Source of the DNA: an uncultured Thermodesulfobacteriota bacterium
Lineage (GTDB): Bacteria; Desulfobacterota; CAZCTP01
DNA: 64,000 nt
Assembly: GCA_964501575.1 (NCBI GenBank)
Contig: CAZCTP010000003.1
Location: 10,384 to 74,383 of the forward strand
Direction of reading: 5' to 3'
The notes below the pieces were generated by a model. The model ran no database searches and was not told the DNA's origin. It was given only the letters and a program-made list of their open reading frames with translations. Both the position numbers and the translations under genes were made by a program. This document shows positions 29,518 through 62,234 of this stretch, one piece after another. Position 1 is the first letter of the stretch, and the number at the start of each line of letters is the position of its first letter.

Positions 29518-29533
29518 TGGCATGATAATTGCA
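29518..29533 (+). promoter_or_regulatory. Sigma-54 (-24/-12) promoter candidate TGGCAT-N5-TTGCA
   Basis: TGGCATgataaTTGCA: GG at 29519-29520 and GC at 29531-29532 with canonical 10-nt spacing. Located 200 bp downstream of a sigma-54 activator gene and about 17 nt upstream of the MoaD-like start. Confidence 0.5.
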
Positions 29534-33962: not shown

Positions 33963-33973
33963 GGAGGGTAATT

Positions 33974-42035: not shown

Positions 42036-42050
42036 TAAGAAGGATAGAAA

Positions 42051-43067: not shown

Positions 43068-45370
43068 AAATATTAGCCACTTTTATTATAAAATATCGCT
43101 TGCCAATCCTGACTGTAATAGTTCTAATTACCCTATTCTTTGCTTATCAAATACTCCATATAGAGATGTATACGGTCTTTGAAGACCTTCTTCCTTCAAA
43201 TCATCCATATATAAAGATGCATAGAGAGTTTAAGGATATATTTGGAGGGGCAAACCTTGTTCTTATATCAATTGAGGTAAAAAAAGGGAATATATTTAAT
43301 TACGATATCCTCTATAAGGTTAAGAAGATGACAGAGGCTGTTGAGATGTGCCATGGGGTGAATAACTATTTAATATACTCCATTGCAAGGCAGAAGGTTA
43401 AGGATATGAAGGCAACATCATGGGGGATTGAGATACAGCCTGTAATGTTTCCGAATCCACCGAAAACCAAGGAAGGTATGGAAGAACTTAAGAATGTTAT
43501 ATACTCCAATGATACAATATTTGGTAAGCTTGTTTCCCTTGACAGCAAGGCTGCTTTAATAACAGCCTCATTTATGGAGAAGAGGCTCGACTATAAATAT
43601 ATATTTGACCATATAATGAGGGCAGCGGATTCACTAAAAGATGAGAATACAATAATTAATGTTGCTGGTGAACCCATATTATATGGATGGATGTATTATC
43701 ATCTAAGGGAAATATCTGTAATATTTATTATTACCATCTCTACTATAGTTCTTCTACTAATCCTTTACTTTAGAAATATACCTGGTGTTATTATACCCAT
43801 GCTTTCTCTTATAGTTACAGCTATATGGGGTGTAGGATTTAATGGCGTTATGGGGTATAACTTTGATCCATTAATCCTTGTAGTTCCATTCCTTATATCT
43901 GCAAGGACAGTCAGTCACTCTGTTCAGATGACTTCTCGATTCTTTGAAGAATATGTTAGATCGGGTGATAGAAAAGAATCAGCGAGGATATCCATTGAAG
44001 GTTTACTGATCCCTGGATTAACATCCATAATAACAGATGCATTTGGTATTCTTGTTATTATTATTGCTCCCATACCAATCCTGGTGAGATTGGGTGTTGT
44101 TGGAACATTCTGGATAATAACGAATATTGTGAGTGTTCTTATATTAGCTCCTATCATATTTACATATATTCCGGTTCCTAAAAAGATAAGAGAGGAAAAG
44201 AGTGAAGATCTCCTTGGGAGAACCCTGTATAGAGCTGGAAAGGGATGCTTTGGGTTTCCACGATTTGGTATAGTAGGAGCAGCTATAATCATTGTTATAT
44301 GGTCTTCATGGAATGTAAGATATCTGACAATAGGGGATTCTCGCCCCGGTTCCCCTTTATTATGGCCAGATGCTCCTTTTAATCTCAGCACAAAGCATAT
44401 AAATGATAAGTTTCCAGGAACAAACCAGTTGATAATATTTGTAAAAGGGAAACATGAAAATACAATAAAATCTCCTGCTTTATTGTACAAGATGGAGGAA
44501 TTTGAAAGGTATTTAAGGAGATATTCAAAGGTTGGTGGAACAGAGTCTATAATAAATCTTGGTAAGAGGGCATATATGGTATTTCATAACGATGATCCAA
44601 GATGGAGATTCCTGTGTAAATCCAGGAATGATATGGGCAATATCTTCTATTTAGCCCAGGAAGGAACAGAGCCTGGGGACTTAGATAAATGGGTAAATTA
44701 TAACTGGCAGCATGGAACTATTATAGCCTATTTAAAGGACCATAAGGGAGATACTATAAGGGAGATTATAGGTAGAGCAAAGAGATTCATTGATAAAAAT
44801 CCAGTTAAAGATGCAGAATGGAAGCTTGCTGGTGGTCTTATAGGTATAGTCGCTGCAGGGAACGAAGTTATTGCAAAAGCCCATGAGTGGAATCTATTCC
44901 TTATACTATTTATAACCTTCCTATGCTGTGCAATAGGCTATAGGTCTATTATTGGTGGTATACTATTTATAGTATCTACATCAATAGCCAATTTTACCAC
45001 CTTGGCTATAATGGCATATTATAACCTTGGTTTAAATGTTAATACAATCCCTGTTGTGACATTAGGTATAGGATTGGGGGTTGATTATGGTCTCTATGTT
45101 GTAAGCAGAATAAAGGAGGAATATGAAATATCTAAGGATTTGAAGATCGCTATTCCCCTGGCTATATCCACTGCTGGTAAGGCTGTTCTATTTACAGCAT
45201 TAACAATAACAGCAGGTATTATATTCTGGTGGTTTTCACCCCTTAGGTTCCAGGCTGAGATGGGGGGGCTTTTGACAATAGTACTTCTCTTTAATATGCT
45301 CGGGGGTATGTTTCTACTTCCGGCACTTATATATATTATAAAACCAAAATTTGTTATTGGAAGGGGGTGA
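43064..45370 (+). CDS. RND-superfamily exporter (MMPL/'predicted exporter of the RND superfamily' type)
   Basis: 768 aa; two 6-TM bundles each preceded by a large extracytoplasmic loop; sterol-sensing-domain-like TM region. Confidence 0.75.
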   Translation: MKILATFIIKYRLPILTVIVLITLFFAYQILHIEMYTVFEDLLPSNHPYIKMHREFKDIFGGANLVLISIEVKKGNIFNYDILYKVKKMTEAVEMCHGVNNYLIYSIARQKVKDMKATSWGIEIQPVMFPNPPKTKEGMEELKNVIYSNDTIFGKLVSLDSKAALITASFMEKRLDYKYIFDHIMRAADSLKDENTIINVAGEPILYGWMYYHLREISVIFIITISTIVLLLILYFRNIPGVIIPMLSLIVTAIWGVGFNGVMGYNFDPLILVVPFLISARTVSHSVQMTSRFFEEYVRSGDRKESARISIEGLLIPGLTSIITDAFGILVIIIAPIPILVRLGVVGTFWIITNIVSVLILAPIIFTYIPVPKKIREEKSEDLLGRTLYRAGKGCFGFPRFGIVGAAIIIVIWSSWNVRYLTIGDSRPGSPLLWPDAPFNLSTKHINDKFPGTNQLIIFVKGKHENTIKSPALLYKMEEFERYLRRYSKVGGTESIINLGKRAYMVFHNDDPRWRFLCKSRNDMGNIFYLAQEGTEPGDLDKWVNYNWQHGTIIAYLKDHKGDTIREIIGRAKRFIDKNPVKDAEWKLAGGLIGIVAAGNEVIAKAHEWNLFLILFITFLCCAIGYRSIIGGILFIVSTSIANFTTLAIMAYYNLGLNVNTIPVVTLGIGLGVDYGLYVVSRIKEEYEISKDLKIAIPLAISTAGKAVLFTALTITAGIIFWWFSPLRFQAEMGGLLTIVLLFNMLGGMFLLPALIYIIKPKFVIGRG

Positions 45371-45459
45371 GGGAAGTCAATTAAGAATTATGAATTAGGA
45401 ATTATGAATTATGAGTTATTATTAAGCAGGAAGTAAAAAATATAAAGAAGGAGGTTTAT

Positions 45460-46716
45460 ATGAAAAAATCAAAATATTTCGTTATTCCTTTTATAATTTT
45501 ATCCTTTATTTTTCTTCTTAATACGAGAAGGGGCTTTGCGGATGTTAAGCCAGGGGATGTTATAGGTCCAAATAACTGGGAGAAAGTTAAAGACCTATTT
45601 TTACCATGGATGTTAGGGCAGATAAAAAAAGGCTGGACAATAAAGATAAGAAAGACAGAGCCTATTCTCCCCACATTTTCAAAGGGATACTTAGAGGCAA
45701 CCCGGAAGTATGCAGGGCAGGCAAAGATAGGGCTCAATGATGGGTTGCTTAACTATAAAGGTGGCCTTCCATTTCCGAAGATAGACCCCGATGACCCTCA
45801 AGCTGGAATAAAGATTATGTATAACTTCTACTGGAGATGGACAGGAGATGATAAGGTTCTCGCTGTTGATAAAACCGGAAAGAGAATAGTACCCTGGAGG
45901 AGATGGGTTATTGATAGGCACGGAAATGAGATAACTGCAGATACATATGGATATTTTTTGAAAGCGAGTGCAAGAACAGATATACCTCCAATATCTGCTT
46001 TTAAAGGAAAGGAGCATATAGAGAGTTATAGTATGTGGATAAATGTATGGCCAAGGGATTCATCGGGAACGGTTGTCTTTTATTACAGATATTATGATCC
46101 TAAAAAATGGGATGACCAGTGGATATTTATACCGAGTATAAGAAGAGTAAGAAGATGGCCAACATCTCAGAGATGTTCAACAAAAGCTCCAACAGACTAT
46201 ATATGGGATGATAACTGGGGATGGGATTCAAAGGTAAGCCTTTTTAAATATAAACTTCTTGGTGAAAAGAAGATGTTAACCATATTTCATGGAAAGCATA
46301 TTCCATATAAGAAGAAGAAAGGTTCTCCATGGTTGCTGGATGAAGAGTTTGAAGTAAGGGACTGTTATGTTGTTGAGATAACTGCAAAGGATCCAAACTA
46401 CTGCTATAGAAGACAGGTATACTATGTAGACAAAGAGAGTTTTCATGGAGTTGCAAAGGAGGTGTATGACAGGAAAAATGAATACTGGAAAGAGATGTTA
46501 ATGTTTGGAACCAATTATGAATATCCTGATGGAAGGAAATTCTGGGGGATTTTAGGATCTATATTTGTAAATGTTCAGACAGAACATATAAATATAAACT
46601 GCCCTTCTGAATCTGGGGCTACAATATATTATAATATAGGACTTACTCCAAAGTTCTTTACCCTATCTCAGATGCAGCAATTTCAGAGAGGGATGGGTTA
46701 TGTGAAGATTAAGTGA
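45460..46716 (+). CDS. Secreted protein, DUF1329-like (partner of DUF1302-like protein)
   Basis: 418 aa; signal peptide MKKSKYFVIPFIILSFIFLLNTRRGFADV; paralog at 61160..62233. Confidence 0.45.
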   Translation: MKKSKYFVIPFIILSFIFLLNTRRGFADVKPGDVIGPNNWEKVKDLFLPWMLGQIKKGWTIKIRKTEPILPTFSKGYLEATRKYAGQAKIGLNDGLLNYKGGLPFPKIDPDDPQAGIKIMYNFYWRWTGDDKVLAVDKTGKRIVPWRRWVIDRHGNEITADTYGYFLKASARTDIPPISAFKGKEHIESYSMWINVWPRDSSGTVVFYYRYYDPKKWDDQWIFIPSIRRVRRWPTSQRCSTKAPTDYIWDDNWGWDSKVSLFKYKLLGEKKMLTIFHGKHIPYKKKKGSPWLLDEEFEVRDCYVVEITAKDPNYCYRRQVYYVDKESFHGVAKEVYDRKNEYWKEMLMFGTNYEYPDGRKFWGILGSIFVNVQTEHININCPSESGATIYYNIGLTPKFFTLSQMQQFQRGMGYVKIK

Positions 46717-46742: not shown

Positions 46743-47525
46743 GTGAGGCTCAAGGATAGGGTAGCAATAGTAACAGGTGGCGGGACTGGTATTGGTAAAG
46801 CTATTGCTCTTGGCTTTGCAAGGGAGGGAGCAGATGTTGTAATTGCCCAGAGGAGGATGGAACTGGCAGAAAAAACAGCAGAGGAGATAAAAGTTATAGG
46901 CAGAAGAGCAATTGCTATTAAGACTGACATCTCTATAATTAGAGATGTCAATAACTTGGTTGATAGGACTATAGAGAATTTTGGTAAGATAGACATCCTC
47001 GTAAACAATGCATCTCTATTTCCTGGGGGTTCATTTTTAGAAATATCAGAAGAGGAACTGGATAGAGTGTTTTCAGTAAATCTTAAGGGGACATTTCTTT
47101 TAACCCAGAGAGTCGCTAAGGAGATGACCAGTAGAAGGAAGGGGAAGATAATAAATATATCTTCGGGCCGTTCCATTGTTGGGATACCCGGGCTTACCCA
47201 TTATACTGTTACAAAAGGAGGGATTAATGCATTTACGAGGGGACTGGCTGCAGAACTCGGTCCCTATGGAATAAATGTAAATGCTATTGTTTGTGGGTTT
47301 GTACCTGATACGGACGGGGTTAATGCTCTGTTTTCCTCTCTGGGTGAAGGGCTCTCCAGAAAGATCCTTGAAACTCAGATATTACAAACAGCCTTGAAAA
47401 GGTTCGGAAAGCCAGATGATTTTGTGGGTATTGCTGTCTATTTAGCAAGCGATGAAAGTAATTTTATAACGGCAGAGTGTATAACCGTGGATGGAGGCTT
47501 AGCTTATACTCGGATGAGATGGTAG
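46743..47525 (+). CDS. Short-chain dehydrogenase/reductase (FabG-like)
   Basis: 260 aa; TGGGTGIGKAIA Rossmann motif, NNAS, catalytic YTVTK (YxxxK). Confidence 0.85.
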   Translation: MRLKDRVAIVTGGGTGIGKAIALGFAREGADVVIAQRRMELAEKTAEEIKVIGRRAIAIKTDISIIRDVNNLVDRTIENFGKIDILVNNASLFPGGSFLEISEEELDRVFSVNLKGTFLLTQRVAKEMTSRRKGKIINISSGRSIVGIPGLTHYTVTKGGINAFTRGLAAELGPYGINVNAIVCGFVPDTDGVNALFSSLGEGLSRKILETQILQTALKRFGKPDDFVGIAVYLASDESNFITAECITVDGGLAYTRMRW

Positions 47526-47609: not shown

Positions 47610-47998
47610 ATGGCAAGAGAAGCAGTAATAAAGGAAATAATAGCTCCAAGGGAGGTTCAGGGTGAGCCTTCAACTGAAAGATCAAGACTTGTAAGGGAGA
47701 GATATCTAAAGGCAGAGCTTGAAGTAGATCCTGAAAGGGCGGATCTCTATACAAAATCATGTAAGGAAACATAGGGAGAGCCTCTTGAAATAAGGAGAGG
47801 TAAGGCATTCAAATATATTATAGGTGGCATATACAGTTCAATGTAGTTGATACAAAGATGCTGAGGGATGCACAGAGGAATCCTGATAAATACAGGGGTC
47901 TTATTGTAAGGGTTGCAGGATTCAGTGCCTACTGGGTTGAGCTTTCTAAAGCAGTGCAGGATGAAGTTATAGCAAGAACTGAGTATGAGACATGCTAA
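47610..47998 (+). pseudogene. Glycyl radical enzyme remnant: GRE1-type N-terminus (about 70 aa) fused to C-terminal glycyl-radical motif segment, with an in-frame stop and about 700 codons deleted
   Basis: Begins with the same SD + ATGGCAAGAGAAGCAGTA as GRE1 (MAREAVIKEIIAPREVQGEPSTERSRLVRERYLKAE...), TAG at 47772-47774, then at about 47840 jumps to sequence about 90% identical to the last about 160 nt of GRE1 ([55 protein letters not shown]), out of frame. Confidence 0.75.
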
Positions 47999-48053: not shown

Positions 48054-50345
48054 ATGAAAAGATACTCTGTGATTGGTAAAAGTTTGCCTATGGTGGATAG
48101 TATACCAAAGGTTACCGGGGAGGCTAAATATTCTATCGATATATTTTTACCAGGGATGCTACATGGGAAGATTCTAAGGAGTCCCTGTCCCCACGCAAGA
48201 ATTCTTAATATAGATGTCAGTGAGGCTAATAAACTTTCTGGGGTGAAGGCTATAATAACCGGTAGAGAAACCCTGGGAATAAAACGTAGCTTCTTTTCTA
48301 ACCCACCCCAGTATGATGATGAGTTTCCATTAGCTATAGATAGGGTCAGATATATTGGTGATCCATTGGCTGCAGTGGCTGCAGTAAATGAATATATAGC
48401 TGAAGAGGCATTAGAGCTTATTAAAGTAGAATATGAGGTATTACCTGCTTTCTTTTCTCCTGAGGAGGCTATGGAAGAGGGGGCTCCAATGATTCATGAG
48501 CATGTTAAGAATAATATAGCCCACCAACTCCATCTTGATTTTGGTGATATAGATAATGGTTTTAGTCAATCTGATTATATCCGTGAGGATAGATTCATTT
48601 CCAATCCCCTTCATCAGGGTTTTCTTGAACCTCATATCTCTGTAGCATCCTATGATTCTATGGGTGAATTGACTATCTGGACCTCTACTCAAATACCATT
48701 TTCCCTTAGAAGTGAATTATCTAAAACACTGGGAGTGAAAGAAGGGATGATAAGGGTAATTAAACCCTATGTGGGTGGGGCTCATTGTAGCAAATTAGAG
48801 TTACTTGCCCACCATTTCTGTTCGGCTCTCCTTTCAAAGAAGACAGGGAAGCCAGTAAAGATAGAGTTGACAAGGGAAGAAGTTTTTCAAATCAATAGAG
48901 GATCCCATCCTGTTACTATTGATCTAAAAACAGGGGTTAAGAAGGATGGAACTCTGATGGCTCAATATGCTAAGCTTATCGCTGATGCTGGAGCATATTT
49001 AAGCGCTGGATTGCTTCTAAATATCCTTTCAGGCCTTTTTATCTCCCTGCCTTATAAAATAGATAACTTTCGCTATGATGGATACATTGTATATACAAAT
49101 AACCCTGTCTGTGCAACTCAAAGAGCAATGGGATTGATTCAGATGCGCTTTGCAATTGATTCTCAACTGGATATAATTGCCAGGAACTTAGGAATAGACA
49201 TTAAAGATTTAATGATCAAGAATGCTGTTACCAGTGGGTATACTACTATAACTAAAAATAAGATATCAAGCTGTGGTCTTATAGAATGTATACAAAAAAC
49301 TGAAGAAAGTTCTTACTGGAGGGAAAGGCATAGTAAATTATTAAATAATAATAGAGGACTGGGAATAGGATGCGGATTCTGTACCTCAGGGGTAAAGGGG
49401 ACCAAGGTAACAGGGGATACCTGGGCTAAGTTAAAGATAGATTCAGATGGCATAGTTACTCTATTTACAGGGGCTTCAGATCTCGGCCAGGGAAGCAATA
49501 CTATTTTATCCCAGATAGTCGCTGAGGAACTGGGTATAGATTTAAAAAATATAAAAATAATCTCTGCAGACACAAAGATTACTCCAACAACTCCTGGAAG
49601 CTTTGGAAGCAGGGTTACCTTCCAGGTAGGAAATGCTGTAAAGCTGGCTGCTGCCGATGCAAAAAGGATTCTTCTAAGAACCGCTGCTAAAAAATTAAAG
49701 GTAAAATATGAATTCTTAGATATCAAAGATAATCGTATCTTTGTTAAGAATTTTCCAGATAGAGCCATATCTTTTTTAGATGCTGTTCGGGTATCTCTCG
49801 AATACCAACAGAGAAGAGATTCTATAATAGGCGAAGGATATTATACCCCTCCTGGTGAAATGCCGGATCCAGACACCTATGAGGGGAATATCGCTTCAGC
49901 CTTTAGCTTTGGGACAACAATAGCTGAAGTGGAGGCTGATCCTGAAACAGGAAGAGTTAATGTATTAAAAATAACTCATTCCCATGACTGCGGTTTTCCG
50001 ATAAATCCTATGGCAGTTGAAGGTCAGATTGAAGGTCAGGTAGCTTTTGGATTGGGACAGGCTTTATATGAAGAGCGTATTTTAGAAAATGGATTAATGG
50101 TCAATCCTTCTTTCTTGGGATATAAGATCCCTATAGCTTCAGAAATGCCGAGTGTAAATTCTATATTAATAGAAACCCATGATCCTAACGGGCCTTTTGG
50201 AGCTAAAGAATGCGGTGAGGGACCTCAAACTTCTGTAGTTCCAGCTATAGCCAATGCTATCTATAATGCAATCGGTATAAGGATTAAAGATTTACCCATA
50301 ACCCCTGAAAAGATATTGAAGGGATTGGAAGAAAAAAGCCTGTGA
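48054..50345 (+). CDS. Xanthine dehydrogenase/aldehyde oxidase-family molybdopterin-binding large subunit (CoxL/HcrA-like), no adjacent FeS or FAD subunit genes
   Basis: 763 aa; N-terminal a/b-hammerhead domain (SVIGKSLPMVDSIPKVTGEAKYSID...), MoCo-binding domains. Confidence 0.8.
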   Translation: MKRYSVIGKSLPMVDSIPKVTGEAKYSIDIFLPGMLHGKILRSPCPHARILNIDVSEANKLSGVKAIITGRETLGIKRSFFSNPPQYDDEFPLAIDRVRYIGDPLAAVAAVNEYIAEEALELIKVEYEVLPAFFSPEEAMEEGAPMIHEHVKNNIAHQLHLDFGDIDNGFSQSDYIREDRFISNPLHQGFLEPHISVASYDSMGELTIWTSTQIPFSLRSELSKTLGVKEGMIRVIKPYVGGAHCSKLELLAHHFCSALLSKKTGKPVKIELTREEVFQINRGSHPVTIDLKTGVKKDGTLMAQYAKLIADAGAYLSAGLLLNILSGLFISLPYKIDNFRYDGYIVYTNNPVCATQRAMGLIQMRFAIDSQLDIIARNLGIDIKDLMIKNAVTSGYTTITKNKISSCGLIECIQKTEESSYWRERHSKLLNNNRGLGIGCGFCTSGVKGTKVTGDTWAKLKIDSDGIVTLFTGASDLGQGSNTILSQIVAEELGIDLKNIKIISADTKITPTTPGSFGSRVTFQVGNAVKLAAADAKRILLRTAAKKLKVKYEFLDIKDNRIFVKNFPDRAISFLDAVRVSLEYQQRRDSIIGEGYYTPPGEMPDPDTYEGNIASAFSFGTTIAEVEADPETGRVNVLKITHSHDCGFPINPMAVEGQIEGQVAFGLGQALYEERILENGLMVNPSFLGYKIPIASEMPSVNSILIETHDPNGPFGAKECGEGPQTSVVPAIANAIYNAIGIRIKDLPITPEKILKGLEEKSL

Positions 50346-50375: not shown

Positions 50376-51842
50376 ATGGCAAGAGATATGTTTGATGAGG
50401 AGTATGATGTAGTTATAATCGGTGCAGGTATGGGAGGACTTACCTGTGGAGCAGCTCTTGCTAAAAAAGGAAAGAGAGTAAAGATATTTGAACAGCACAT
50501 TCTTCCAGGAGGATATGCCTCTTCCTTTGTTAGAAAGGGCTTTAAATTTGATGTCGCTATTCATTATGTAATCGGTTTGGGTAATGGGGGACAGGTATAT
50601 AAAATATTATCAGAAATTGGGCTTAGTGACGGATTAGATTCCATTAAATTTGATAATCTTTACAGATGCTTTTTCCCGGGAGAATCTTTTATTGTCCCCA
50701 GTAATTTGGAAGATTATTTAAATTTTCTCTCTCAAAGATTTCCAGAGGAAAAGATAGGAATAAAAACCCTTTTTGGTACAATGGGACTCATCTATGAAGA
50801 TAGTAAGAACCTTCCATCACTGACCTCTTTATTAACCCGATATAAAGATAAGACGCAAAAGGAATTATTAGATGAGTTTATAAAGGATGGTAAGCTTAAG
50901 AGTATAGTTTCTTCACTATTTTATGGGGGCTTGCCACCATCTAAGATATCAGCTATTCAGAGATCCTGCTCAATAATGGGAGCCTTTTCAAATGGGGCAT
51001 TTTATCCAGTAGGAGGTTCACAAGCATTAGTCAATATCTTGGTAAATGGATTAAAAAGAGCTGGAGGAGAATTAGAATTGGGTAGATTAGTGAATAGAAT
51101 TATTGTAAAGAATGGAAGGGCTATTGGAATTGAAACATCAGATGGTAAGAGAATAAAAGCTAATTGGATTGTATCTAATTCAGATATTATGGAAACCTTT
51201 TTTAAGTTAATCGGGGGAAAAGAGTTAGAAGGGATAAATCCTGCATTTCTAAAAGGCTTAAGGGAAATGCAGCCATCTTTATCCTCTTTTGATGTATACC
51301 TTGGAGTGGACTTGGATATAAAATCCATTGGTATCACTGACCATGAGATTATAGTGCATGAAAGCTGGAATATAGAGGAGGAATTTAAAGAATTATTAGA
51401 GGATGGTTTCTCGGGGGTTCCCTATTCTATAACAATACCAACACTTTCTGATCCTTCACTTGCTCCTGTGAATCATCATATAGTAATTATCTTTACACCA
51501 GCGCCTTATCATTTAAAAGGAGGGGATTGGAAGGCTGATAAAGAGAGGATTACGAATGAAATGATATTAAAGGCAGAGTCTGTTATACCTGGATTATCCA
51601 AGCATATAGTAGTAAAAGACTCCGCTACCCCTTTGACAAAGGAAAGGTATACATTAAATTTTAGGGGGTCTATTGGAGGTTGGGCTAATTATCCAAACAT
51701 AATATTTAATAAGCCATTACCCAAGACCCCGGTTGAGAATCTTTATCTTACCGGTCATTGGACACTTCCTGGAGGTGGAATTTCAGGGGTAATCTCTTCT
51801 GGATGGGCAGTTGCTAATATGATAGGGGAAAATAGCTTTTAG
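50376..51842 (+). CDS. FAD-dependent oxidoreductase, phytoene-desaturase (CrtI/COG1233) family
   Basis: 488 aa; N-terminal DVVIIGAGMGGLTCGAALAKKGKRVKIFEQHILPGGYA dinucleotide-binding motif characteristic of the CrtI-like amine-oxidase fold. Confidence 0.7.
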   Translation: MARDMFDEEYDVVIIGAGMGGLTCGAALAKKGKRVKIFEQHILPGGYASSFVRKGFKFDVAIHYVIGLGNGGQVYKILSEIGLSDGLDSIKFDNLYRCFFPGESFIVPSNLEDYLNFLSQRFPEEKIGIKTLFGTMGLIYEDSKNLPSLTSLLTRYKDKTQKELLDEFIKDGKLKSIVSSLFYGGLPPSKISAIQRSCSIMGAFSNGAFYPVGGSQALVNILVNGLKRAGGELELGRLVNRIIVKNGRAIGIETSDGKRIKANWIVSNSDIMETFFKLIGGKELEGINPAFLKGLREMQPSLSSFDVYLGVDLDIKSIGITDHEIIVHESWNIEEEFKELLEDGFSGVPYSITIPTLSDPSLAPVNHHIVIIFTPAPYHLKGGDWKADKERITNEMILKAESVIPGLSKHIVVKDSATPLTKERYTLNFRGSIGGWANYPNIIFNKPLPKTPVENLYLTGHWTLPGGGISGVISSGWAVANMIGENSF

Positions 51843-51883
51843 TTAATTTTTTAAAATATTATGAATTAATAAGGGGGTATAAA

Positions 51884-54385
51884 ATGGCAAGAGAATCAGC
51901 AATAAGGGAACTAATAACCGATAGGGAAATAAGGAGAGAGCCTACTACAGAGAGAACAAAGATGCTCAGAAAAAGATTTCTTCAGGAAAAGCTTACAGTA
52001 TGCACTGAGAGGGCATTTTTATTTACAGAGGCTTTTAAAAAAGGCGATGGTCTGCCAATAATGGTAAGAAGAGCAGAAGCATTCAAATATTACTTGAGCA
52101 ATATGAAGCCCATTATCAGAGATGGAGAGCTTATTGTAGGAAATTATACAAGATTTGTAAGGGGCGCTGCACTCTATCCTGATGGGGGTGTAAAGTGGAT
52201 AAAGGACGTATTAAAAGGGATTCTTTCTGAAGCCGAACAGAAATATGTAGAGCTCCCGGATGGGGGTGGAATTGTAAGGGACTTTGTCACATATAGGCTT
52301 GCACTGAGTAAGAAGGAAGAGGAAAAGTTATGGGAGGTGTTAGACTACTGGGATGGTAAAAGTTTTGATTGTATGATTAGAAAATATTTTGAAAAGACCG
52401 ATAGTTATGCCCTTCTAAAAGAATTAGAGTCTACATTAACTATTTCTCCATTTATTACAACCAATCTCTGTGAAGGTAGGATGGTTCTTGATTATGAAAA
52501 GGTTTTAAATAAGGGATTTAATGGAATAATAGAAGAGATAAATGAGAAACTAAGAGAGCTCAGAAGGATAGGGCATAGAGTGAGGCTTATGGATGATATG
52601 GATAAGATAATCTTCTACGAATCTGCTATATCATCCTGTGAAGGGGTAATAGCACTATCAGAGAATTATGCCTCCGAGGCAGAGAGATTGGCAAGAAACG
52701 AAAAGAATAGAAATAGAAAAGATGAACTAATGAGAATAGCAGGGGCATGCAGATGGGTTCCTGCAAATCCAGCGAGGAATTTATATGAGGCATTACAGTC
52801 ATGGTATTTCACTCATATGGCTGGATTCTTAGAGTCTGGTGGAGCAGCTTATTCTCCTGCAAGGTTTGATCAATATATGTATCCCTTCTATAAAAAGGAT
52901 ATAGAAGAGAATAAAATAACAAGGAGTGAGGCTTTAGAGCTATTAGAATGCTTAAGGTTAAAAATCGCTCAATATCAGTATGTAACCACTGTTATGAATG
53001 AAGGGCTTTTTTCAGGGACTACAAATCAGAATCTTGTGTTAGGGGGATGCACAAAGGATGGAAAACCTGCTGATAATGATTTGTCAACCCTCATATTAGA
53101 ATCAGCAATAACAATGCAGACAAATCAGCCAACTCTATCTATCAGATATAATGATAAACTTAATGAGGATTTCCTGCTTAAGGCTATAGAATTGGTAAAG
53201 ACAGGTATTGGGATGCCTGCATGGTTTAATGATGAGGTTGGCATTGCTCATGCATTATCCCATACCGGTGCTTCCTTAGAAGATGCAAGGGATTGGGCAC
53301 TGGGGGGTTGTGTTGAGCAGGTTGTATCCCATAGAAGGGGAGGATTCCAATTATCATTCTATACAAACCTCGGGAAGACACTGGAATTAGCACTGAATAA
53401 TGGAATTGATCCAGTAAGCAGGAAAAGGGTTGGTATTGAGACAGGTGATCCTCAGAATATGAGCTATGATGAGCTTGTTGATGCCTGGAAAAAACAGACA
53501 GCATATGTTTATCATCTTGCCCAGGACTACTGGAATATGGCAATGGGCTTGCACCCTCATATCCTTCCACTACCCTATGCATCTGTTTTAACAGATGATT
53601 GTATTGAAAGGGGTAAGAGTTTAGATGAAGGTGGAGCAAGGTACTCAGATGGACCAACCCATTTAATTACAGGTCTTATAGATGTAGCTAATTCCTTTGC
53701 AGCTATAAAGAAGTGTGTATTTGAAGATAAGGTCTTTACAATGGGGGAGTTAATTAATGCATTAAATAGAGACTTTAAAGGGTATGAGGATATTCAAAGG
53801 AAGCTTATTGATGCTTCAAAGTTTGGAAATGATGATGATTATGTGGATGATATAGCCCAAGATCTTTATGGATATCTTGCAGAGGAATCGCTCTCCCATA
53901 AGAATTGGTTTGGTCATCCAATCCCTCCTGCACCGGCTACTGTAACCACACATCCAATATTTGGTAAGGCATGTGGTGCTCTGCCAGAAGGAAGAAAGAA
54001 GGGGATTGCCCTATGTGATGGTTCTGTTTCGGCACTTCCCGGGACGGATAAAAATGGTCCAACAGCTCTTGTTAATTCTGCATCCAAGGTAGATGCTATT
54101 CCATATTCATGTCATCTATTAAATATTAAGTTTCATCCAACAGCTCTGAAGGATATAGATGGATCAAGAAAACTTTTGGCATTGATTAAGACCTATATGG
54201 ATAGGGGTGGATATCATGTTCAATTTAATGTGGTTGATACAAAGATGTTAAGGGATGCTCAGAGGAGACCGGAAGATTATCAGGATTTATGGGTAAGGGT
54301 AGCCGGATTCAGTATGAGGTGGGTTGAGCTATCAAGGGCTGTTCAGGATGAGATAATCAGAAGAACAGAGTATGAAGAATGCTAA
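51884..54385 (+). CDS. Glycyl radical enzyme GRE2 (PFL superfamily), paralog of GRE1
   Basis: 833 aa; C-terminal RVAGFSMRWVELS glycyl radical motif (Gly codon 54304-54306); catalytic loop LGGCVEQ (Cys codon 53309-53311). No activase or small subunit genes adjacent. Confidence 0.9.
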   Translation: MARESAIRELITDREIRREPTTERTKMLRKRFLQEKLTVCTERAFLFTEAFKKGDGLPIMVRRAEAFKYYLSNMKPIIRDGELIVGNYTRFVRGAALYPDGGVKWIKDVLKGILSEAEQKYVELPDGGGIVRDFVTYRLALSKKEEEKLWEVLDYWDGKSFDCMIRKYFEKTDSYALLKELESTLTISPFITTNLCEGRMVLDYEKVLNKGFNGIIEEINEKLRELRRIGHRVRLMDDMDKIIFYESAISSCEGVIALSENYASEAERLARNEKNRNRKDELMRIAGACRWVPANPARNLYEALQSWYFTHMAGFLESGGAAYSPARFDQYMYPFYKKDIEENKITRSEALELLECLRLKIAQYQYVTTVMNEGLFSGTTNQNLVLGGCTKDGKPADNDLSTLILESAITMQTNQPTLSIRYNDKLNEDFLLKAIELVKTGIGMPAWFNDEVGIAHALSHTGASLEDARDWALGGCVEQVVSHRRGGFQLSFYTNLGKTLELALNNGIDPVSRKRVGIETGDPQNMSYDELVDAWKKQTAYVYHLAQDYWNMAMGLHPHILPLPYASVLTDDCIERGKSLDEGGARYSDGPTHLITGLIDVANSFAAIKKCVFEDKVFTMGELINALNRDFKGYEDIQRKLIDASKFGNDDDYVDDIAQDLYGYLAEESLSHKNWFGHPIPPAPATVTTHPIFGKACGALPEGRKKGIALCDGSVSALPGTDKNGPTALVNSASKVDAIPYSCHLLNIKFHPTALKDIDGSRKLLALIKTYMDRGGYHVQFNVVDTKMLRDAQRRPEDYQDLWVRVAGFSMRWVELSRAVQDEIIRRTEYEEC

Positions 54386-54475: not shown

Positions 54476-56029
54476 ATGGAATATGATATTATTGTGATAG
54501 GAAGCGGACATAATGGTTTAACAACCGCATGTTATCTTGCAAAATGGGGACTTAAGGTTATTGTTTTGGAAAAAAGGAATGTCTTCGGTGGAGGATGTAT
54601 TACTGAAGAGGTAACGCTCCCTGGTTTTAAGCATGATATTCATTCAGAAAATCATCTGTGGGTGAGAATATCCCCTACAATGGATGAACTTCAACTTGAA
54701 AAATATGGACTGGAATATTATATACCGGAAAAACTTATTGGTTCAGGATTTCCTGATGGAAGTTCCATAGTTCAAAATATAGATATAGATAAAACACTTG
54801 AGAGTATATCAAAGATAAATGAGGAAGATGCAGATTCATATAAAAGGTTTTATGAGAGATATTTAGAGGTTTCAAAGATAATATTTGATTCCTTCTTTTT
54901 AACAACCCCTCCTGGAACAGGATTTATGCAGGCAATGGAGGGAAGTAGAGAAGGTGCAGAAATATTGAGATATATGCTTCTTTCTCCAAAAGATGTATTA
55001 GACGAAAATTTTAAAGATGACAGGGTTAAAACATGGCTATATGCTTATGCTGAACAGCTTGGAAATGCTCCTGATGAACCAGGGAGCGGTTTCTCTATAT
55101 TTCTTCTTCCCTCATTTGTTCAACAATATGGTCTGGGGAAGCCGATTGGAGGCTCTGGTATGCTTACAGAAGCATTTCTAAAATGTTTTAAATCTTTAGG
55201 AGGAGAGGTAAGAGGGAATTCTGAGGTTAGAAGGATAATAATTGAAGGGGGGGGAGCAAGCGGCGTTGAACTTATTAGTGGAGAGAAGATAAGGGCTAAA
55301 AAGGCTATCGTGTCGATGATGTCATTTCCCTACCTGATTAAGGCTACTGGAGAAGAAAATCTTGGCTATGATTTTGTAAAGAGAGCAAATAACTTTAGAT
55401 ATGGATATGGAATATTTATGGTTCATGCTGCCCTTGATGATCAATTAAATTTTATTTCTCCTGAGCTTGATGATGCAACAACAATAACCCTTTATGAATC
55501 AATGGATAACTGCCTTAAATGTTTTCATCAAATATCCATGGGAGAGATACCATGGGATAATATACTTGTATTTGTGAGTAACTATTCTGTAAAGCTATGT
55601 GAAAAGACAAAAAAGGTACCACATGGAAAAGCTACATTATATCTTGCATCTCCTGAATGTATTCCAAATACCAAAAATTTAAGAAATGGAACATGGGATT
55701 ATAATAAGGTAAGGTTTGGAGAAGCACTTATAAATAAACTCTCTATGTATGCACCGAATCTCAAAGATATTCTTTTAAAGGTATATTTTGATTCACCAGC
55801 AGACATCGAGAGGAGAAATCCTACAATGGCATACGGAGATGCAGTCTTAGGGAGATCTACTTTAGAACAGTTCTTAATGAGACCATTTCCAGGATATACA
55901 GAATATAAAACATCCATATCTAATCTGTATATGACGGGGGGGCATACATGGCCATCCGGAGGTGTAACAACAGCCCCAGGATATAACTGTGCAAGAATTA
56001 TAAAAAGAGATCTTAAGATAGGAGGATAG
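54476..56029 (+). CDS. FAD-dependent oxidoreductase, phytoene-desaturase (CrtI/COG1233) family
   Basis: 517 aa; [45 protein letters not shown] dinucleotide-binding motif. Confidence 0.7.
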   Translation: MEYDIIVIGSGHNGLTTACYLAKWGLKVIVLEKRNVFGGGCITEEVTLPGFKHDIHSENHLWVRISPTMDELQLEKYGLEYYIPEKLIGSGFPDGSSIVQNIDIDKTLESISKINEEDADSYKRFYERYLEVSKIIFDSFFLTTPPGTGFMQAMEGSREGAEILRYMLLSPKDVLDENFKDDRVKTWLYAYAEQLGNAPDEPGSGFSIFLLPSFVQQYGLGKPIGGSGMLTEAFLKCFKSLGGEVRGNSEVRRIIIEGGGASGVELISGEKIRAKKAIVSMMSFPYLIKATGEENLGYDFVKRANNFRYGYGIFMVHAALDDQLNFISPELDDATTITLYESMDNCLKCFHQISMGEIPWDNILVFVSNYSVKLCEKTKKVPHGKATLYLASPECIPNTKNLRNGTWDYNKVRFGEALINKLSMYAPNLKDILLKVYFDSPADIERRNPTMAYGDAVLGRSTLEQFLMRPFPGYTEYKTSISNLYMTGGHTWPSGGVTTAPGYNCARIIKRDLKIGG

Positions 56030-56033
56030 GAAT

Positions 56034-57461
56034 ATGCCTTTCAATGATATAAGGGAGTTTATAGAAAGATTAAGAGAGACAGGAGATCTATTAGAGATTA
56101 ATAGAGAGGTCGACTGGAATCTTGAGGCAGGCGCTATAATGAGAAGGTGTAATGAAACAAATGAAAGGGCTCAACTTTTTAATAATATAAAGGGATATCC
56201 AGAAGGATACAGGTTATTTGGGAGTCCATTAGCAAATTTAAGAAGAGTCGCTATAGCACTCGAGATGTCTCCAGAATCCTCTTATACAGAAATATTAGAT
56301 GAGTATATTAAGAGGCGCAATAATATTATAAAGCCTATAATTGTGAGTGATGGTCCATGTAAGGAGAATATATATAAGGGAGAAGAGGTCGATCTGTTTA
56401 AATTTCCTTCTCCTATGATTCATGCAGGGGACGGAGGGCGTTATATAGGAACATTGGATGTAGGGGTATGTAAAGATCCGGACTCTGACTGGATAAATTG
56501 GGGTACATATAGGTTAATGATCCATGATAGAGATTCCATAGGTATATTTCTTATTCCTGCTCAACATGTTGGGATGATATATTCAAAGTATAAATCAAGC
56601 AATAAACCTATGGAATATGTTGCATTTATGGGCTGTGAACCAATAACAAATCTTGTTGCAACGACGGGGATACCCTATGGAGTGAGTGAAGTGGATGTAA
56701 TAGGAGCTGTTAGAAGAGAACCTTTAAAGGTGGTTAAATGTGAGACTGTTGACCTCTTTGTCCCTGCAAGCGCAGAGATTGTTATTGAAGGGGAGATACT
56801 TCCTCATGTCAGAAAGGATGAAGGACCATTTGGAGAAGGGGCTGGTTACCAGGTTACTGGAAGGGTTCCGAGACCAGTATTTAAAGTAAAAGCCATTACA
56901 CATCGAAATGCTCCAATACTTCCTGTTTCATGCATAGGTGTTCCTGTAGATGACAGTCATGTAGCAAGTAATATAGGATTTATATCAGGTATAAAGATAG
57001 CATTAGTTGAAGCTGGTATTCCAATTACTGGAATATATATGCCCCCAGAATCCGGGCTTTCCCTGTGTATTGTTTCAACAAAGACTCCGACTCCAAATAT
57101 AGCGAGAAGGATTGCAAGTTGTGTATGGGGAGATAAAAATGGCCAATATCTGCCCAAAATAGTAGTAGTTGATGAAGATATTGATCCAACAAATATGGCT
57201 CAGGTCATCCATGCATTTGCTACCAAGTGTCATCCATCAAGAGGGATAATGATTATGGATAATGTATTTAATTCTCCAATATTAGGATACTTAAGTAAGG
57301 AGGAGAGGACTTTAAGTAGTGGAAGCAATGTTTTGTTTGATTGTACATGGCCTAAAAGCTGGAAGACAGAAGATATTCCACCAAAATCCTCCTTTGACAA
57401 TATATACCCAGATGAGGTTAGAGAGATGGTTATATCTAATTGGAAGGAATATGGATTTTAG
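56034..57461 (+). CDS. UbiD-family (prenylated-FMN-dependent) decarboxylase/carboxylase
   Basis: 475 aa; MPFNDIREFIERLRETGDLLEINREVDWNLEAGAIMRR is the conserved UbiD N-terminus; no ubiX in window. Confidence 0.85.
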   Translation: MPFNDIREFIERLRETGDLLEINREVDWNLEAGAIMRRCNETNERAQLFNNIKGYPEGYRLFGSPLANLRRVAIALEMSPESSYTEILDEYIKRRNNIIKPIIVSDGPCKENIYKGEEVDLFKFPSPMIHAGDGGRYIGTLDVGVCKDPDSDWINWGTYRLMIHDRDSIGIFLIPAQHVGMIYSKYKSSNKPMEYVAFMGCEPITNLVATTGIPYGVSEVDVIGAVRREPLKVVKCETVDLFVPASAEIVIEGEILPHVRKDEGPFGEGAGYQVTGRVPRPVFKVKAITHRNAPILPVSCIGVPVDDSHVASNIGFISGIKIALVEAGIPITGIYMPPESGLSLCIVSTKTPTPNIARRIASCVWGDKNGQYLPKIVVVDEDIDPTNMAQVIHAFATKCHPSRGIMIMDNVFNSPILGYLSKEERTLSSGSNVLFDCTWPKSWKTEDIPPKSSFDNIYPDEVREMVISNWKEYGF

Positions 57462-58100: not shown

Positions 58101-59727
<1,627 letters not shown>

Positions 59728-59731
<4 letters not shown>

Positions 59732-61149
59732 AAGGAAAGGTTTTATTAATTGTATTAATAGCTTTATTTATAGATAAAAGAGCTTTCTCCTTTAATATTG
59801 CTTCATTCAATCCCATAGGTAATAGCCTTAGTAAAATAAAGAAGAGTATACCAAATCTGGATATTAAAGGGTTTATTGAAAATGAAACCGATATAGATCT
59901 TCATGGACATAGATATAATACCCAGAAGATAGAGTGGCTTTCAGAGATTGATCTAAGATATAGGTTATCCAGTGATATGGAGATAGTGAACATCTATAAT
60001 TTTCTATATGATTCAATATTTGACTGGGAGGCAAAACATGTATTCTCTTCAGAAACAGAAAGGAAGTTAAGAGTATACAGGAATGGAAAGAGGATATTAA
60101 GAGAGTTATATCTTGACTGGGCACTTAATGACTGGAGATTTATTTTAGGAAAACAACAGGTTGTTTGGGGAAAGGTTGATGGAAGAAAGGTTCTTGATAT
60201 GATAAATCCAGAGGATTTTAGAGAGGGTCCATGGGATGCTGCAATGGATGATTGGAAGTATACAAGAATTCCGTTATGGATGGCAAATATATCATGGAGT
60301 GGAGAGATATATAACCTCCAATTTTTATGGATTCCTGACTTTGAGCCAAATCCCTTAATACCTGAGGACTGGATATGGGGATTTAAGAGAAGACCAGATC
60401 CATCGATTAGAACGGTAATTAGAGATATTATTAAACCCGATGAAGATAGGATTGAAAATCATGAATTCGCTCTAAAGTTAGAATTTGAGCAAAATGGATG
60501 GGATATATTCTTTGTTTACTTTTATGGATGGAGTTATAATCCTACTCTCTTTAGAAAGGATACTATAATATCCACTAATAAAGGAGATCCAATAACATTT
60601 GTTCTTGAACCAAGATATACCCGCTTGCACAGATTCGGCTTTGCCCTTGATAAAGCATTCTCCTTTTTAGGATATGATTGGGTTGGAAGAATAGAATCTG
60701 TTTACAAAAAGAATCTATATATAGCCACTGATAATGAACCACTGAATGAGGATGGTCAGACTCAAAGGGACAGGCTTTTAACATCGCTTGCTTTAGAGAC
60801 TATAATCTTTGTAGACTGGGATATTCTTCTCACTATTCTACCTGAATATACATTTGGAAGTATGGAGGGATTGAGATTTATGCCGATAAGAACACCTCTT
60901 AATCACTGGGAAAATTATTATTCTCTTACAATAACAAAGAGTTTTTATTATGACAGGGGTACTTTATCCCTTACAATGGCTTATGGTGACCATGGAGAGG
61001 AAAGGCTTAGAACTCGTATATTCTTTAGGCTTTCCGATTTTATAACATTGAGTGTCGGGATTCATTCCTTCTGGGGGAAGGATAGTACAGTTACAGGACA
61101 ATTCTCAAAGAATGACGAAGTAGAATTCGGGATAAAATATGAATTTTAA
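59728..61149 (+). CDS. Secreted/outer-membrane protein, DUF1302-like, second copy
   Basis: 473 aa; signal peptide MKGKVLLIVLIALFIDKRAFSF; C-terminal aromatic residue (…GIKYEF); paired with DUF1329-like gene as in the first module. Confidence 0.4.
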
Positions 61150-61159
61150 GGAGGAGAGT

Positions 61160-62233
61160 ATGATGAGAAAAATAATTTTTTTAATCCCCTTTATATTTTT
61201 CCAATCTTTATTATATGCAGGTCAATGGAAGAACCCAAGGGATATCATAGGGGATCCTATGATTGTCAGGCTACAACAGGGCAGGAAAGAGCTTACTTCA
61301 GAGGAAAAGGAAGAAATAAAGAGATATGGATATACAGGATTGGAGATAATGAGCTATGTGATGTGCAACAAGGACCCCGGAAAAGACAATGAGGGATTCT
61401 ATAAAAGTATATCTGTAGATTCATCAGGAAATATCCAGATCAGAGAGGTTATAAGAAGGAGAAAATATTATTATAAGGATTATAGGGCAAGGTTTACCTA
61501 TGATGGGATTAAGCCCGGGGATGTAGTTTACAAAAGAGCAGGTATGCAGTTATATCCCCCTCGTGATAGAGGAACCACATTTATAAGAATTGCCTATCTA
61601 AAATCAAAGGATAATTATAAGCCAGATACCCTTTTCGTAAGGTCTATATCTCTGAAGAGGATAAGGCAATATCCAACCCCTAACAATCAGGATAAATTTT
61701 ACAAAGAGGATATGACTCATGATGACTGGTATGCAAGAGAGGCGTGGCAGGAAAATCACAGGATTATAGGAGAGGATAATATAAGGGGTAAGGACTGCTT
61801 TGTTATAGAGAGCAAAAACTGGTATTATCCGAATTACTATCTCAGCAAGAGGGTAACCTGGGTTGAGAAGAAGAACTTTCTTGATCTACATGAAGAACAG
61901 TTTGATAGGAAGGGCAGGCTATTTAAAATAATGGACAAAGAGTGGGTCCAGGTTCCACCATGGAACTATTGGGTGAGAAAAAACTGGGATATTATAGATC
62001 TCAGCACAAAATCAAGAACCATTGAATATACCTATGATTGGATATTTGATCAGGGTTTTACAGAAAAGAAATTCTCTAAGGCGATGCTTAAGAATGAGAA
62101 GGTGTGGAGAGAACCTAAAAATCCGCCTCCATCCATTAGAAAACTTTCAGATCTACCTAATCCACCACAGGTAAGGTCAGAGTTCTGGAAGAGGATGGAT
62201 GTAGCACCAAATATTTTTGGGAGGGGGAAGTAA
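61160..62233 (+). CDS. Secreted protein, DUF1329-like, second copy
   Basis: Start ATG 61160 preceded by AGGAGG; signal peptide MMRKIIFLIPFIFFQSLLYAGQ; shares size, signal peptide and W/Y-rich composition with 45460..46716. Confidence 0.4.
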   Translation: MMRKIIFLIPFIFFQSLLYAGQWKNPRDIIGDPMIVRLQQGRKELTSEEKEEIKRYGYTGLEIMSYVMCNKDPGKDNEGFYKSISVDSSGNIQIREVIRRRKYYYKDYRARFTYDGIKPGDVVYKRAGMQLYPPRDRGTTFIRIAYLKSKDNYKPDTLFVRSISLKRIRQYPTPNNQDKFYKEDMTHDDWYAREAWQENHRIIGEDNIRGKDCFVIESKNWYYPNYYLSKRVTWVEKKNFLDLHEEQFDRKGRLFKIMDKEWVQVPPWNYWVRKNWDIIDLSTKSRTIEYTYDWIFDQGFTEKKFSKAMLKNEKVWREPKNPPPSIRKLSDLPNPPQVRSEFWKRMDVAPNIFGRGK

Positions 62234-62234
62234 T

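Follow-up and report, generated by a model that had tools for sequence, protein, structure and literature searches.

What does a second, intact glycyl radical enzyme (GRE) do in a gene island that already encodes one, and how does it obtain its radical? The question is raised by GRE2, a gene at positions 51884–54385 of a window of 64,000 nucleotides (the whole stretch of DNA analysed here) from an uncultured Thermodesulfobacteriota bacterium. The same island holds a paralog, GRE1, and the only GRE-activating enzyme of the window. Our comparison of sequences and models suggests, with a chance that we set at about even, that GRE2 is a trans-activated enzyme resembling indoleacetate decarboxylase (IAD), probably a decarboxylase itself, acting on a hydrophobic carboxylic acid other than that of GRE1. 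The gene and its catalytic elements are as follows.

51884–54385, + strand: GRE2, an intact glycyl radical enzyme of 833 aa (open reading frame, Pfam, AlphaFold2 model).
51871–51877, + strand: Shine-Dalgarno-like AAGGGGG, 6 nt 5' of the GRE2 ATG (read directly from the sequence).
52478–52480, + strand: codon of GRE2 Arg199 in an EGR motif, equivalent to IAD Arg226 (alignment).
53303–53320, + strand: Cys loop GGCVEQ of GRE2, aa 474–479, with the catalytic Cys476 and Glu478 (CXE motif).
53984–54382, + strand: C-terminal glycyl radical domain of GRE2, aa 701–833, with RVAG808FS (alignments, trees).

The open reading frame runs unbroken from ATG to stop over 2.5 kb and 833 aa, and Pfam recognises both domains of the superfamily, PFL-like (PF02901, 3.7e-188, aa 22–694) and Gly_radical (PF01228, 3.9e-26, aa 714–814). 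Cys476 aligns with Cys433 of glycerol dehydratase (GD), Cys503 of HPAD and Cys500 of IAD, and Gly808 in the Gly loop RVAGFSMRW is predicted from its motif to bear the radical. In the alignment the position of Arg199 is invariant in the family of GRE2, and GD carries His164 there. The segment 3' of the Cys loop, VVSHRRGGFQLSFY, deviates from the family consensus. The initial annotation had described GRE2 as a second full-length GRE paralog with GGCVEQ instead of the GGCTEM of GRE1, and the reading frame, both domains and the difference between the loops are all confirmed. The AlphaFold2 model of GRE2 has a pTM of 0.87, its low-confidence stretches being essentially the active-site loops, and resembles the solved GREs (GD, PD, HPAD, HypD, CutC) at a TM of about 0.85–0.90. 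Foldseek of this model does not separate the GRE classes, with values of 0.85–0.88 for GD, PD, HPAD, HypD and CutC. Scans for sigma-70 promoters and terminators around the gene gave matches at chance level.

GRE2 could also be a decaying, non-functional relic of an eroding island. The same island holds a deleted GRE (47610–47998) and a frameshifted CrtO-like gene (58119–59731), there is no GRE2 ortholog above 57% identity, and the active-site loops are off consensus and modelled with low confidence. These signs have to be set against the uninterrupted 2.5-kb reading frame, the strong Shine-Dalgarno sequence and the retention of all catalytic residues. Moreover, the rate at which GRE2 deviates from family columns that are at least 90% conserved (41 of 311) is like that of GRE1 (33 of 313) and of other singleton lineages (47–67). 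About 15 of the 41 deviations lie in active-site segments (308–326, 384, 479–493, 684–687, 811–812) and most of the others are conservative. Four independent assemblies agree on the GRE2 sequence except for one base in one JGI contig (L003). Taken together, a relic appears improbable to us, and the intactness of GRE2 in an island with decaying genes argues for its maintenance. That GRE2 is a functional glycyl radical enzyme of an uncharacterised lineage is a reasonable expectation, which we hold at middling strength.

Which of the known GRE classes is closest to GRE2? It reaches the cut-off of no curated family model. Its best model is that of IAD (NF033718), with 750.3 bits against a cut-off of 1100 (GRE1 scores 870.4 bits), and it also stays below the cut-offs of TIGR01774 (PFL2-3; 577 bits vs 678) and of the HPAD model NF033715 (561 bits vs 1150). 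GRE2 belongs to the GRE superfamily and, on the features compared, falls outside IAD, HPAD, the GD-type eliminases and the X-succinate synthases. We nevertheless ally it with the arylacetate decarboxylases of the IAD type because of the profile score and the pocket residues, and conclude with moderate confidence that it probably works most like an IAD-type decarboxylase. IAD (OsIAD and OuIAD, the latter with a cryo-EM study in PMC13232127) and GRE2 have in common the N-terminal motif REV.G.PST.R and the Gly loop RVAGFS, and neither has a small subunit. Unlike GRE1 and GRE2, IAD has about 20 further N-terminal residues; loop extensions and a long N-terminal 'seatbelt' are specific to IAD and HPAD (PMC13232127). 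The settings differ as well, IAD belonging to gut amino-acid fermentation and GRE2 to a sediment-type, Thermodesulfobacteriota-like catabolic island.

The reference points for reading the pocket are GRE1 and two clades of relatives.

35737–38208, + strand: GRE1, an 823-aa paralog with an IAD-like hydrophobic pocket, sister to clade B.

GRE1 has the same architecture as GRE2, with the Cys loop GGCTEM and the Gly loop RVAGFSAYW, and the two are 53% identical over their full length (445 of 837 positions), which bears out the substantial divergence claimed in the initial annotation. Among the 5.8 billion proteins searched, only GRE2 itself exceeds 57% identity to GRE2. Its closest relatives form clade A (P0002–P0011, 55–57% identity; for instance KPJ58181.1 of Deltaproteobacteria bacterium DG_8), which has the Cys loop GGCSDM and the Gly loop RVAGFTAYW. 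Clade A thus differs from GRE2 by a CSD motif, with Asp for Glu, and by RVAGFT; it also has Phe at the position of IAD Leu616 and Tyr at that of Leu730. Clade B (P0012–P0028 and P0030; Cys loop GGCSEMQLPG, Gly loop RVAGFSAYW) is 58–61% identical to GRE1 and has the architecture of GRE2 too. Asp in place of the otherwise universal Glu of the CXE motif is seen not only in clade A but also in several archaeal homologues (CGCVDV; P0034).

In a neighbour-joining tree rooted on GD, clade A is the sister group of GRE2 (99 of 100 bootstraps) and clade B that of GRE1 (91 of 100). With residues 1–700, GRE2 groups with clade A in 197 of 200 bootstraps. The metagenome-assembled genome (MAG) of DG_8 carries one clade A and one clade B enzyme, and synonymous sites between GRE1 and GRE2 are saturated (pS 0.73, codons 1–700). 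By this phylogeny GRE1 and GRE2 are old paralogs of different subclades and not recent duplicates, because they fall in separate clades and DG_8 holds one of each. A recent duplication within the genome, hinted at by the common MARE... start and ...TEYE.C end, is ruled out by the phylogeny of residues 1–700.

The pocket was mapped on OsIAD of Tractidigestivibacter (Olsenella) scatoligenes (L078) in an L-INS-i alignment whose OsIAD numbering agrees with the literature residues R226, W392, A396, F401, C500, E502, H514, L616 and G853. Roles of IAD residues were taken from the discovery paper of 2018 (PMC6181972), a review of 2026 (PMC13450708) and a 2026 cryo-EM preprint on OuIAD (PMC13232127). 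According to these three sources, a hydrophobic cage of Phe401, Phe517, Leu616, Leu730 and a neighbouring Ile surrounds the ring, His514 contacts the indole NH, Trp392 is the entry gate, Cys223 sits at the distal end of the cavity and Glu502 works via a water molecule. Arg226 stacks on the substrate ring (PMC13232127), and Arg226, Glu502 and Leu616 are essential by mutagenesis (PMC13450708, PMC13232127). The equivalent positions are:

IAD Arg226: GRE1 R194, GRE2 R199.
IAD Cys223: GRE1 P191, GRE2 C196.
IAD Trp392: GRE1 W362, GRE2 N372.
IAD Ala396: GRE1 G366, GRE2 F376.
IAD Phe401: GRE1 Y371, GRE2 N381.
IAD Cys500/Glu502: GRE1 C466/E468, GRE2 C476/E478.
IAD His514: GRE1 T480, GRE2 L490.
IAD Phe517: GRE1 F483, GRE2 Y493.
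IAD Leu616: GRE1 L582, GRE2 L594.
IAD Leu730: GRE1 L675, GRE2 A685.
IAD Ile732: GRE1 I677, GRE2 V687.
Position of HPAD His536: GRE1 G482, GRE2 F492.

GRE1 and clade B retain most of the IAD cage (Arg226, Trp392, Phe517, Leu616, Leu730 and Ile732; Phe401 is Tyr in GRE1) and lack only the indole-specific His. GRE2 has the Arg platform, both residues of the catalytic dyad and Leu594, and also matches IAD at Cys223 (Cys196); its gate and half of its cage are replaced, by two Asn, two new Phe and one Ala. Specifically, Trp392, Phe401, His514 and Leu730 of IAD become Asn372, Asn381, Leu490 and Ala685. Written as a signature of 15 sites, the pocket is CRWAFCVE.HAFLLI in IAD, PRWGYCTEMTGFLLI in GRE1, PRWSFCSEMIGFLLI in clade B (jointly with GRE1, PRW[GS][YF]C[TS]EM.GFLLI), MR.TFCSDMPGFFYI in clade A and CRNFNCVEQLFYLAV in GRE2. 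The signature of GRE2 is found in no other of about 190 homologues, the best match agreeing at 7 of 15 sites.

Our results thus support the earlier proposal that GRE2 handles a different substrate or pathway step than GRE1, because its pocket has been rebuilt relative to that of GRE1 (W to N372, G to F376, Y to N381, T to L490, G to F492, L to A685). The near-identity of pocket residues that would speak for a simple dosage duplication is not found. GRE2 and GRE1 do belong to the same superfamily and island, with common catalytic residues and a very similar C-terminal domain, all of which one would also expect if GRE2 were redundant, a dosage copy acting on the substrate of GRE1. At 53% identity, with saturated synonymous sites, membership in different subclades, most non-catalytic pocket positions changed and a signature of its own, such a copy seems very improbable. 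The substrate of GRE2 may possibly carry polar substituents for Asn372 and Asn381 to bind.

How GRE2 would receive its radical is the second part of the question.

38319–39245, + strand: GRE-activating radical SAM enzyme, the only one in the window (TIGR02494, 343.7 bits vs cut-off 174).

This gene lies 12.6 kb upstream of GRE2 on the same strand and is not adjacent to it. A tblastn search with the activase over the whole 64-kb window returned a single copy (38319–39242), and there is no second activase in the 10 kb downstream of the window, which corresponds to positions 11337–75336 of a JGI contig of 95,471 bp. GRE2 therefore has no activase of its own in this region, as the initial annotation had it. 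Clade A and B genes elsewhere are likewise often found without an adjacent activase. None of the other three radical SAM genes of the window is a GRE activase; two are 'variant rSAM' paralogs (NF045502) and one is of the DNA-repair type. The two paralogs were considered as alternative activases and are ruled out, since they match NF045502 and not TIGR02494 and are absent beside GREs in 87 other loci.

The Gly loop is probably what GRE activases chiefly recognise, and cross-activation is known among identical or near-identical loops (PMC13450708). The loops in question are RVAGFSM in GRE2, RVAGFSA in GRE1 and RVAGFTA in clade A. The similarity to GRE1 extends beyond the loop: in the 50-residue windows 751–800 and 776–825 GRE2 is 82% identical to GRE1, against 66–72% to clade A and 66–73% to clade B, and GRE1 and GRE2 are 82% identical over the last ~80 residues. 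In trees of residues 701–833, GRE1 and GRE2 are sisters in 113 of 200 bootstraps, and GRE2 joins clade A in 4 of 200. The C-terminal part also shows less synonymous divergence, with a pS of 0.57 (0.53 in 751–833) versus 0.73 in codons 1–700. The conflict between the C-terminal tree and that of residues 1–700 is moderate evidence that the glycyl radical domain of GRE2 was either homogenised with that of GRE1 by gene conversion or co-adapted to the same activase. Trans-activation of GRE2 by the 38319 activase is plausible and would fit both alternatives. The earlier presumption that GRE2 relies on this activase thus gains plausibility from the single activase gene, the near-identical Gly loops and the GRE1-like C-terminal domain, all of them indirect support.

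A 186-aa protein with a Clp_N domain is encoded directly after the activase (39242–39802, + strand). Its gene begins 4 nt ahead of the activase stop codon, an arrangement suggestive of translational coupling. To our knowledge, a Clp_N-domain partner of a GRE activase has not been described.

Several points weigh against GRE2 being a trans-activated, IAD-like decarboxylase. The gate Trp392, Phe401 and the indole-NH-binding His514 of IAD are not kept, and the IAD insertion 656–678 is absent from GRE2, as it is from GRE1. Identity to IAD is 36%, which is not above the 40% to GD, and the best PDB sequence matches of GRE2 are CutC and GD. The CXE motif is common to all eliminases and isomerases and also to IAD and HPAD; therefore it cannot identify a decarboxylase. 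The aldehyde:ferredoxin oxidoreductase (AFOR) and SDR neighbours of the relatives would fit an aldehyde-forming eliminase too. Decay of the island, with GRE3 (the GRE copy at 47610–47998) deleted and a CrtO-like gene frameshifted, makes a loss of GRE2 function possible. The C-terminal incongruence has a bootstrap support of just 56%, and the search for activases covered 74 kb of the genome.

A number of these points would be met by a 1,2-eliminase or isomerase acting on a hydroxylated, probably anionic, hydrophobic substrate and delivering an aldehyde or ketone to the SDR or AFOR. We regard this as a doubtful but serious possibility. GRE2 has the CXE motif, which no known GRE eliminase or isomerase lacks (PMC13450708), and SDR and AFOR genes recur beside the clade A and B relatives. 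GD (PDB 1R8W) and other GRE 1,2-eliminases also have in common with GRE2 a TM of 0.85–0.90. IslA binds its sulfonate through an arginine that may correspond in position to Arg199 of GRE2. The residues described for IslA are Arg189, Gln193 and Arg678 (PMC13450708). The evidence against an eliminase lies in the pocket and the profiles: His164, Ser282 and Asp447 of GD are replaced in GRE2 by Arg199, Ala322 and Leu490, as is Tyr640 by Ala685, the TIGR01774 score stays below its cut-off, the best profile is that of IAD, and GRE1 and clade B retain most of the IAD hydrophobic cage. An identity as a GD-type dehydratase proper is ruled out by the replacement of His164, Ser282 and Asp447 together with the TIGR01774 score.

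HPAD (PDB 2Y8N/2YAJ) has the GRE fold (TM 0.88 to GRE2), a CXE motif and a C-terminal domain that resembles that of GRE2. Its alignment came from a PDB search with the C-terminal half of GRE1; with the N-terminal 378 aa, HPAD ranked 11th. It differs from GRE2 at the phenol-binding Glu637 ('Glu2'), which is Leu594, and at His536, which is Phe492. Beside GRE2 there is no gene for an HpdC-like small subunit, and the flanking gaps of 41 and 90 nt hold no small open reading frame. An HPAD identity is ruled out by Leu594 at the Glu637 site, the lack of an HpdC gene and the score below the cut-off.

A hydrocarbon-activating enzyme that adds fumarate, in the manner of the X-succinate synthases, would suit the transporters for hydrophobic compounds in the island and the related cassette in a MAG from a tar biofilm. 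BSS and MASS/MasD are, however, among the weakest GRE matches of GRE2 in the PDB (305–370 bits vs 533), GRE2 is not flanked by genes for small beta or gamma subunits, and genes of the fumarate-addition pathway such as bbs were not seen in the annotation of the window. We give this alternative hardly any weight.

If GRE2 is a trans-activated, IAD-like decarboxylase, the following mechanism can be proposed. The activase at 38319–39245 would install the radical on Gly808 by abstracting a hydrogen, the pairing of the two being assumed from the data above, and the radical would then move from Gly808 to Cys476, as is known for the GRE family. A hydrophobic carboxylic acid would be held against the invariant Arg199 and Cys476. 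Radical decarboxylation is the most likely reaction, of the Kolbe type or initiated by hydrogen atom transfer as debated for IAD, with Glu478 probably serving as the proton relay that re-protonates Cys476. By analogy with the family, the product radical would take the hydrogen back from Cys476.

The GRE genes are part of an island that follows the housekeeping genes of positions 1–27 kb, and GRE2 stands in it between two CrtI-like flavoproteins and upstream of UbiD, a placement noted from the sequence and borne out by the profile annotation of the neighbours. The remaining features of the island are:

27353–29329, + strand: PAS-domain sigma-54 activator at the upstream edge of the island.
29518–29533, + strand: match to a sigma-54-type promoter, TGGCATGATAATTGCA, with 1 mismatch (pattern scan).
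33959–35239 and 62217–63512, + strand: two 'variant radical SAM' (NF045502) paralogs bracketing the island.
40533–46716, + strand: DUF1302/BNR/MMPL(RND)/DUF1329 set, a putative 'Nanopod'-type transport system for hydrophobic compounds.
46743–47525, + strand: SDR oxidoreductase.
47610–47998, + strand: GRE3 remnant, GRE1-like, residues 1–74 fused to 767–823 with the frame broken (tblastn, alignment).
48054–50345, + strand: large subunit of an XDH-family molybdenum enzyme; closest model 4-hydroxybenzoyl-CoA reductase alpha, below cut-off.
50376–51842, + strand: CrtI/CrtISO-family flavoprotein directly upstream of GRE2.
54476–56029, + strand: CrtO-like (CrtI-family) flavoprotein directly downstream of GRE2.
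56034–57461, + strand: UbiD-family (de)carboxylase; closest model phenylphosphate carboxylase alpha, below cut-off; passes TIGR00148.
58119–59168 and 59240–59731, + strand: split CrtO-like gene, an N-terminal open reading frame of 349 aa and a C-terminal one of 163 aa.
59728–62233, + strand: second pair of DUF1302 and LolA-like/DUF1329 genes.

From the sigma-54 activator onwards the order is MoaD-like, a PhsA/PsrA-like molybdenum enzyme with Fe-S and NrfD, variant rSAM, PNPOx-like, GRE1, activase, Clp_N, DUF1302/BNR/MMPL/DUF1329, SDR, the GRE3 remnant, the XDH large subunit, CrtISO-like, GRE2, CrtO-like, UbiD, YCII, the split CrtO-like gene, DUF1302 with LolA-like, and the second variant rSAM. 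The promoter match at 29518 sits between the PAS/sigma-54 activator and the array of the molybdenum enzyme and GRE1. Matches to the sigma-54 promoter are not enriched in the window (20 vs 14.6 expected), and only the one at 29518 is sensibly placed. The two variant rSAM paralogs are 54% identical to each other, mirroring the 53% between GRE1 and GRE2. No genes for FAD or 2Fe-2S subunits of the XDH large subunit at 48054–50345 are found within the window. Past its end follow PrpD-like, long-chain acyl-CoA ligase and TPP enzyme genes and then a complete XDH-type set (FAD, 2Fe-2S and a second large subunit), which lies ~20 kb downstream, outside the window (L092 18323–21278).

The GRE3 remnant was missed in the initial annotation. 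About 690 codons have been deleted from it; residues 1–74 are 73% identical to GRE1 and residues 767–823 are 95% identical, with RVAGFS retained. Compared with GRE1, the C-terminal piece carries 12 synonymous and 3 non-synonymous changes, which means that this copy was under purifying selection until the deletion. The C-terminal open reading frame of the remnant (47858–47998, 46 aa) is annotated by JGI as a Gly_radical protein and may conceivably act as a GrcA-like 'spare part'. The open reading frames of the split CrtO-like gene cover positions 3–351 and 391–538 of the CrtO profile, with a frameshift near 59165. Three independent assemblies call the gene as split in this way, which makes a true pseudogene or split gene probable.

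The DUF1329/DUF1302/MMPL set is similar to the 'Nanopod' cluster, for which a role in benzene transport has been proposed in an organism that degrades benzene anaerobically (PMC13101534). As a whole the island looks like one for breaking down hydrophobic carboxylic acids, aromatic or unsaturated, under anaerobic conditions. The literature on GREs with DUF1329, UbiD or CrtI yielded no description of this cluster. A more specific, speculative and quite unlikely proposal is an undescribed anaerobic pathway in which two (formerly three) IAD-like GRE decarboxylases with one activase would act on Nanopod-imported hydrophobic aryl- or alkenyl-acetic acids, together with CrtI-type desaturases or isomerases, an XDH-type (de)hydroxylase and UbiD. 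GRE2 would then represent a new substrate class, its glycyl radical domain homogenised with that of GRE1 for compatibility with the activase. If this is true, GRE decarboxylases would have a catabolic use and not one in forming fermentation end products.

Parts of this gene order recur in other genomes. In the Thermodesulfobacteriota MAG12 from a tar biofilm (L074 1–12043) the order is LolA/DUF1329, XDH large subunit, CrtI-like, GRE and MMPL, the GRE being 37% identical to GRE2; this locus is similar to the module around GRE2, and the order from XDH to MMPL suggests a conserved functional cassette. In a Dehalococcoidia MAG (L013), two CrtO-like genes, a bis-MGD molybdenum enzyme and a PaaK-type ligase accompany a GRE of 46% identity and its activase. 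Genes of clades A and B adjoin SDR, AFOR, TPP-decarboxylase-like, UbiD and Amidohydro_2 genes, and SDR is the commonest neighbour of these GREs apart from the activase. The neighbours in the clade A loci L004–L008 are TPP-decarboxylase-like, AFOR, FAD-oxidoreductase and peptidase M19 genes.

A few residues of the pocket determine what a GRE does, and entire clades are unassigned, uncharacterised clades being common (PMC13450708); therefore one more is unsurprising in itself. Less ordinary here are the unique pocket signature, the series of GRE1, GRE2 and a ghost GRE3 with one activase, the chimeric signal in the glycyl radical domain and the recurrent association of XDH, CrtI-like, GRE and MMPL genes. 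GRE1 with the cage of an arylacetate decarboxylase and GRE2 with a uniquely rebuilt cage form a natural pair, with one activase apparently for both, and the pair is therefore a compact system for studying the choice of substrate by GREs and their compatibility with activases. If GRE2 is indeed a decarboxylase, GRE decarboxylases would serve not only amino-acid fermentation in the gut but also the breakdown of hydrophobic acids by sulfate-reducer-like bacteria associated with sediments or hydrocarbons. Such enzymes are relevant to biological hydrocarbon formation and to bioremediation.

Some further observations concern the surroundings of the island and the same metagenomes. Ahead of the sigma-54 activator, at 25243–27248 (+ strand), a putative radical SAM gene for DNA modification or repair (TIGR03916) precedes a gene for a 318-aa protein with CRISPR_Cas6 as its sole Pfam match; no other cas genes were seen near these positions. 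A second adjacency of UbiD and the CrtI family is present in L095/L096 (4067–11584), in a cluster that resembles one for O2-independent quinone biosynthesis: UbiD, CrtI-like, UbiA, two peptidase-U32 genes (UbiU/UbiV-like) and SCP2 (UbiT-like), together with another CrtI-like gene whose identity to the CrtO-like gene of the window is 38%. The closest homologue of that CrtO-like gene (54%) is found in L093/L094 (1480–10598), in a cluster with acyl-CoA dehydrogenase, methylmalonyl-CoA-mutase-like, two CrtI-like genes, an SDR and two TodX/FadL outer-membrane channels, which again links CrtO-like flavoproteins to hydrophobic substrates.

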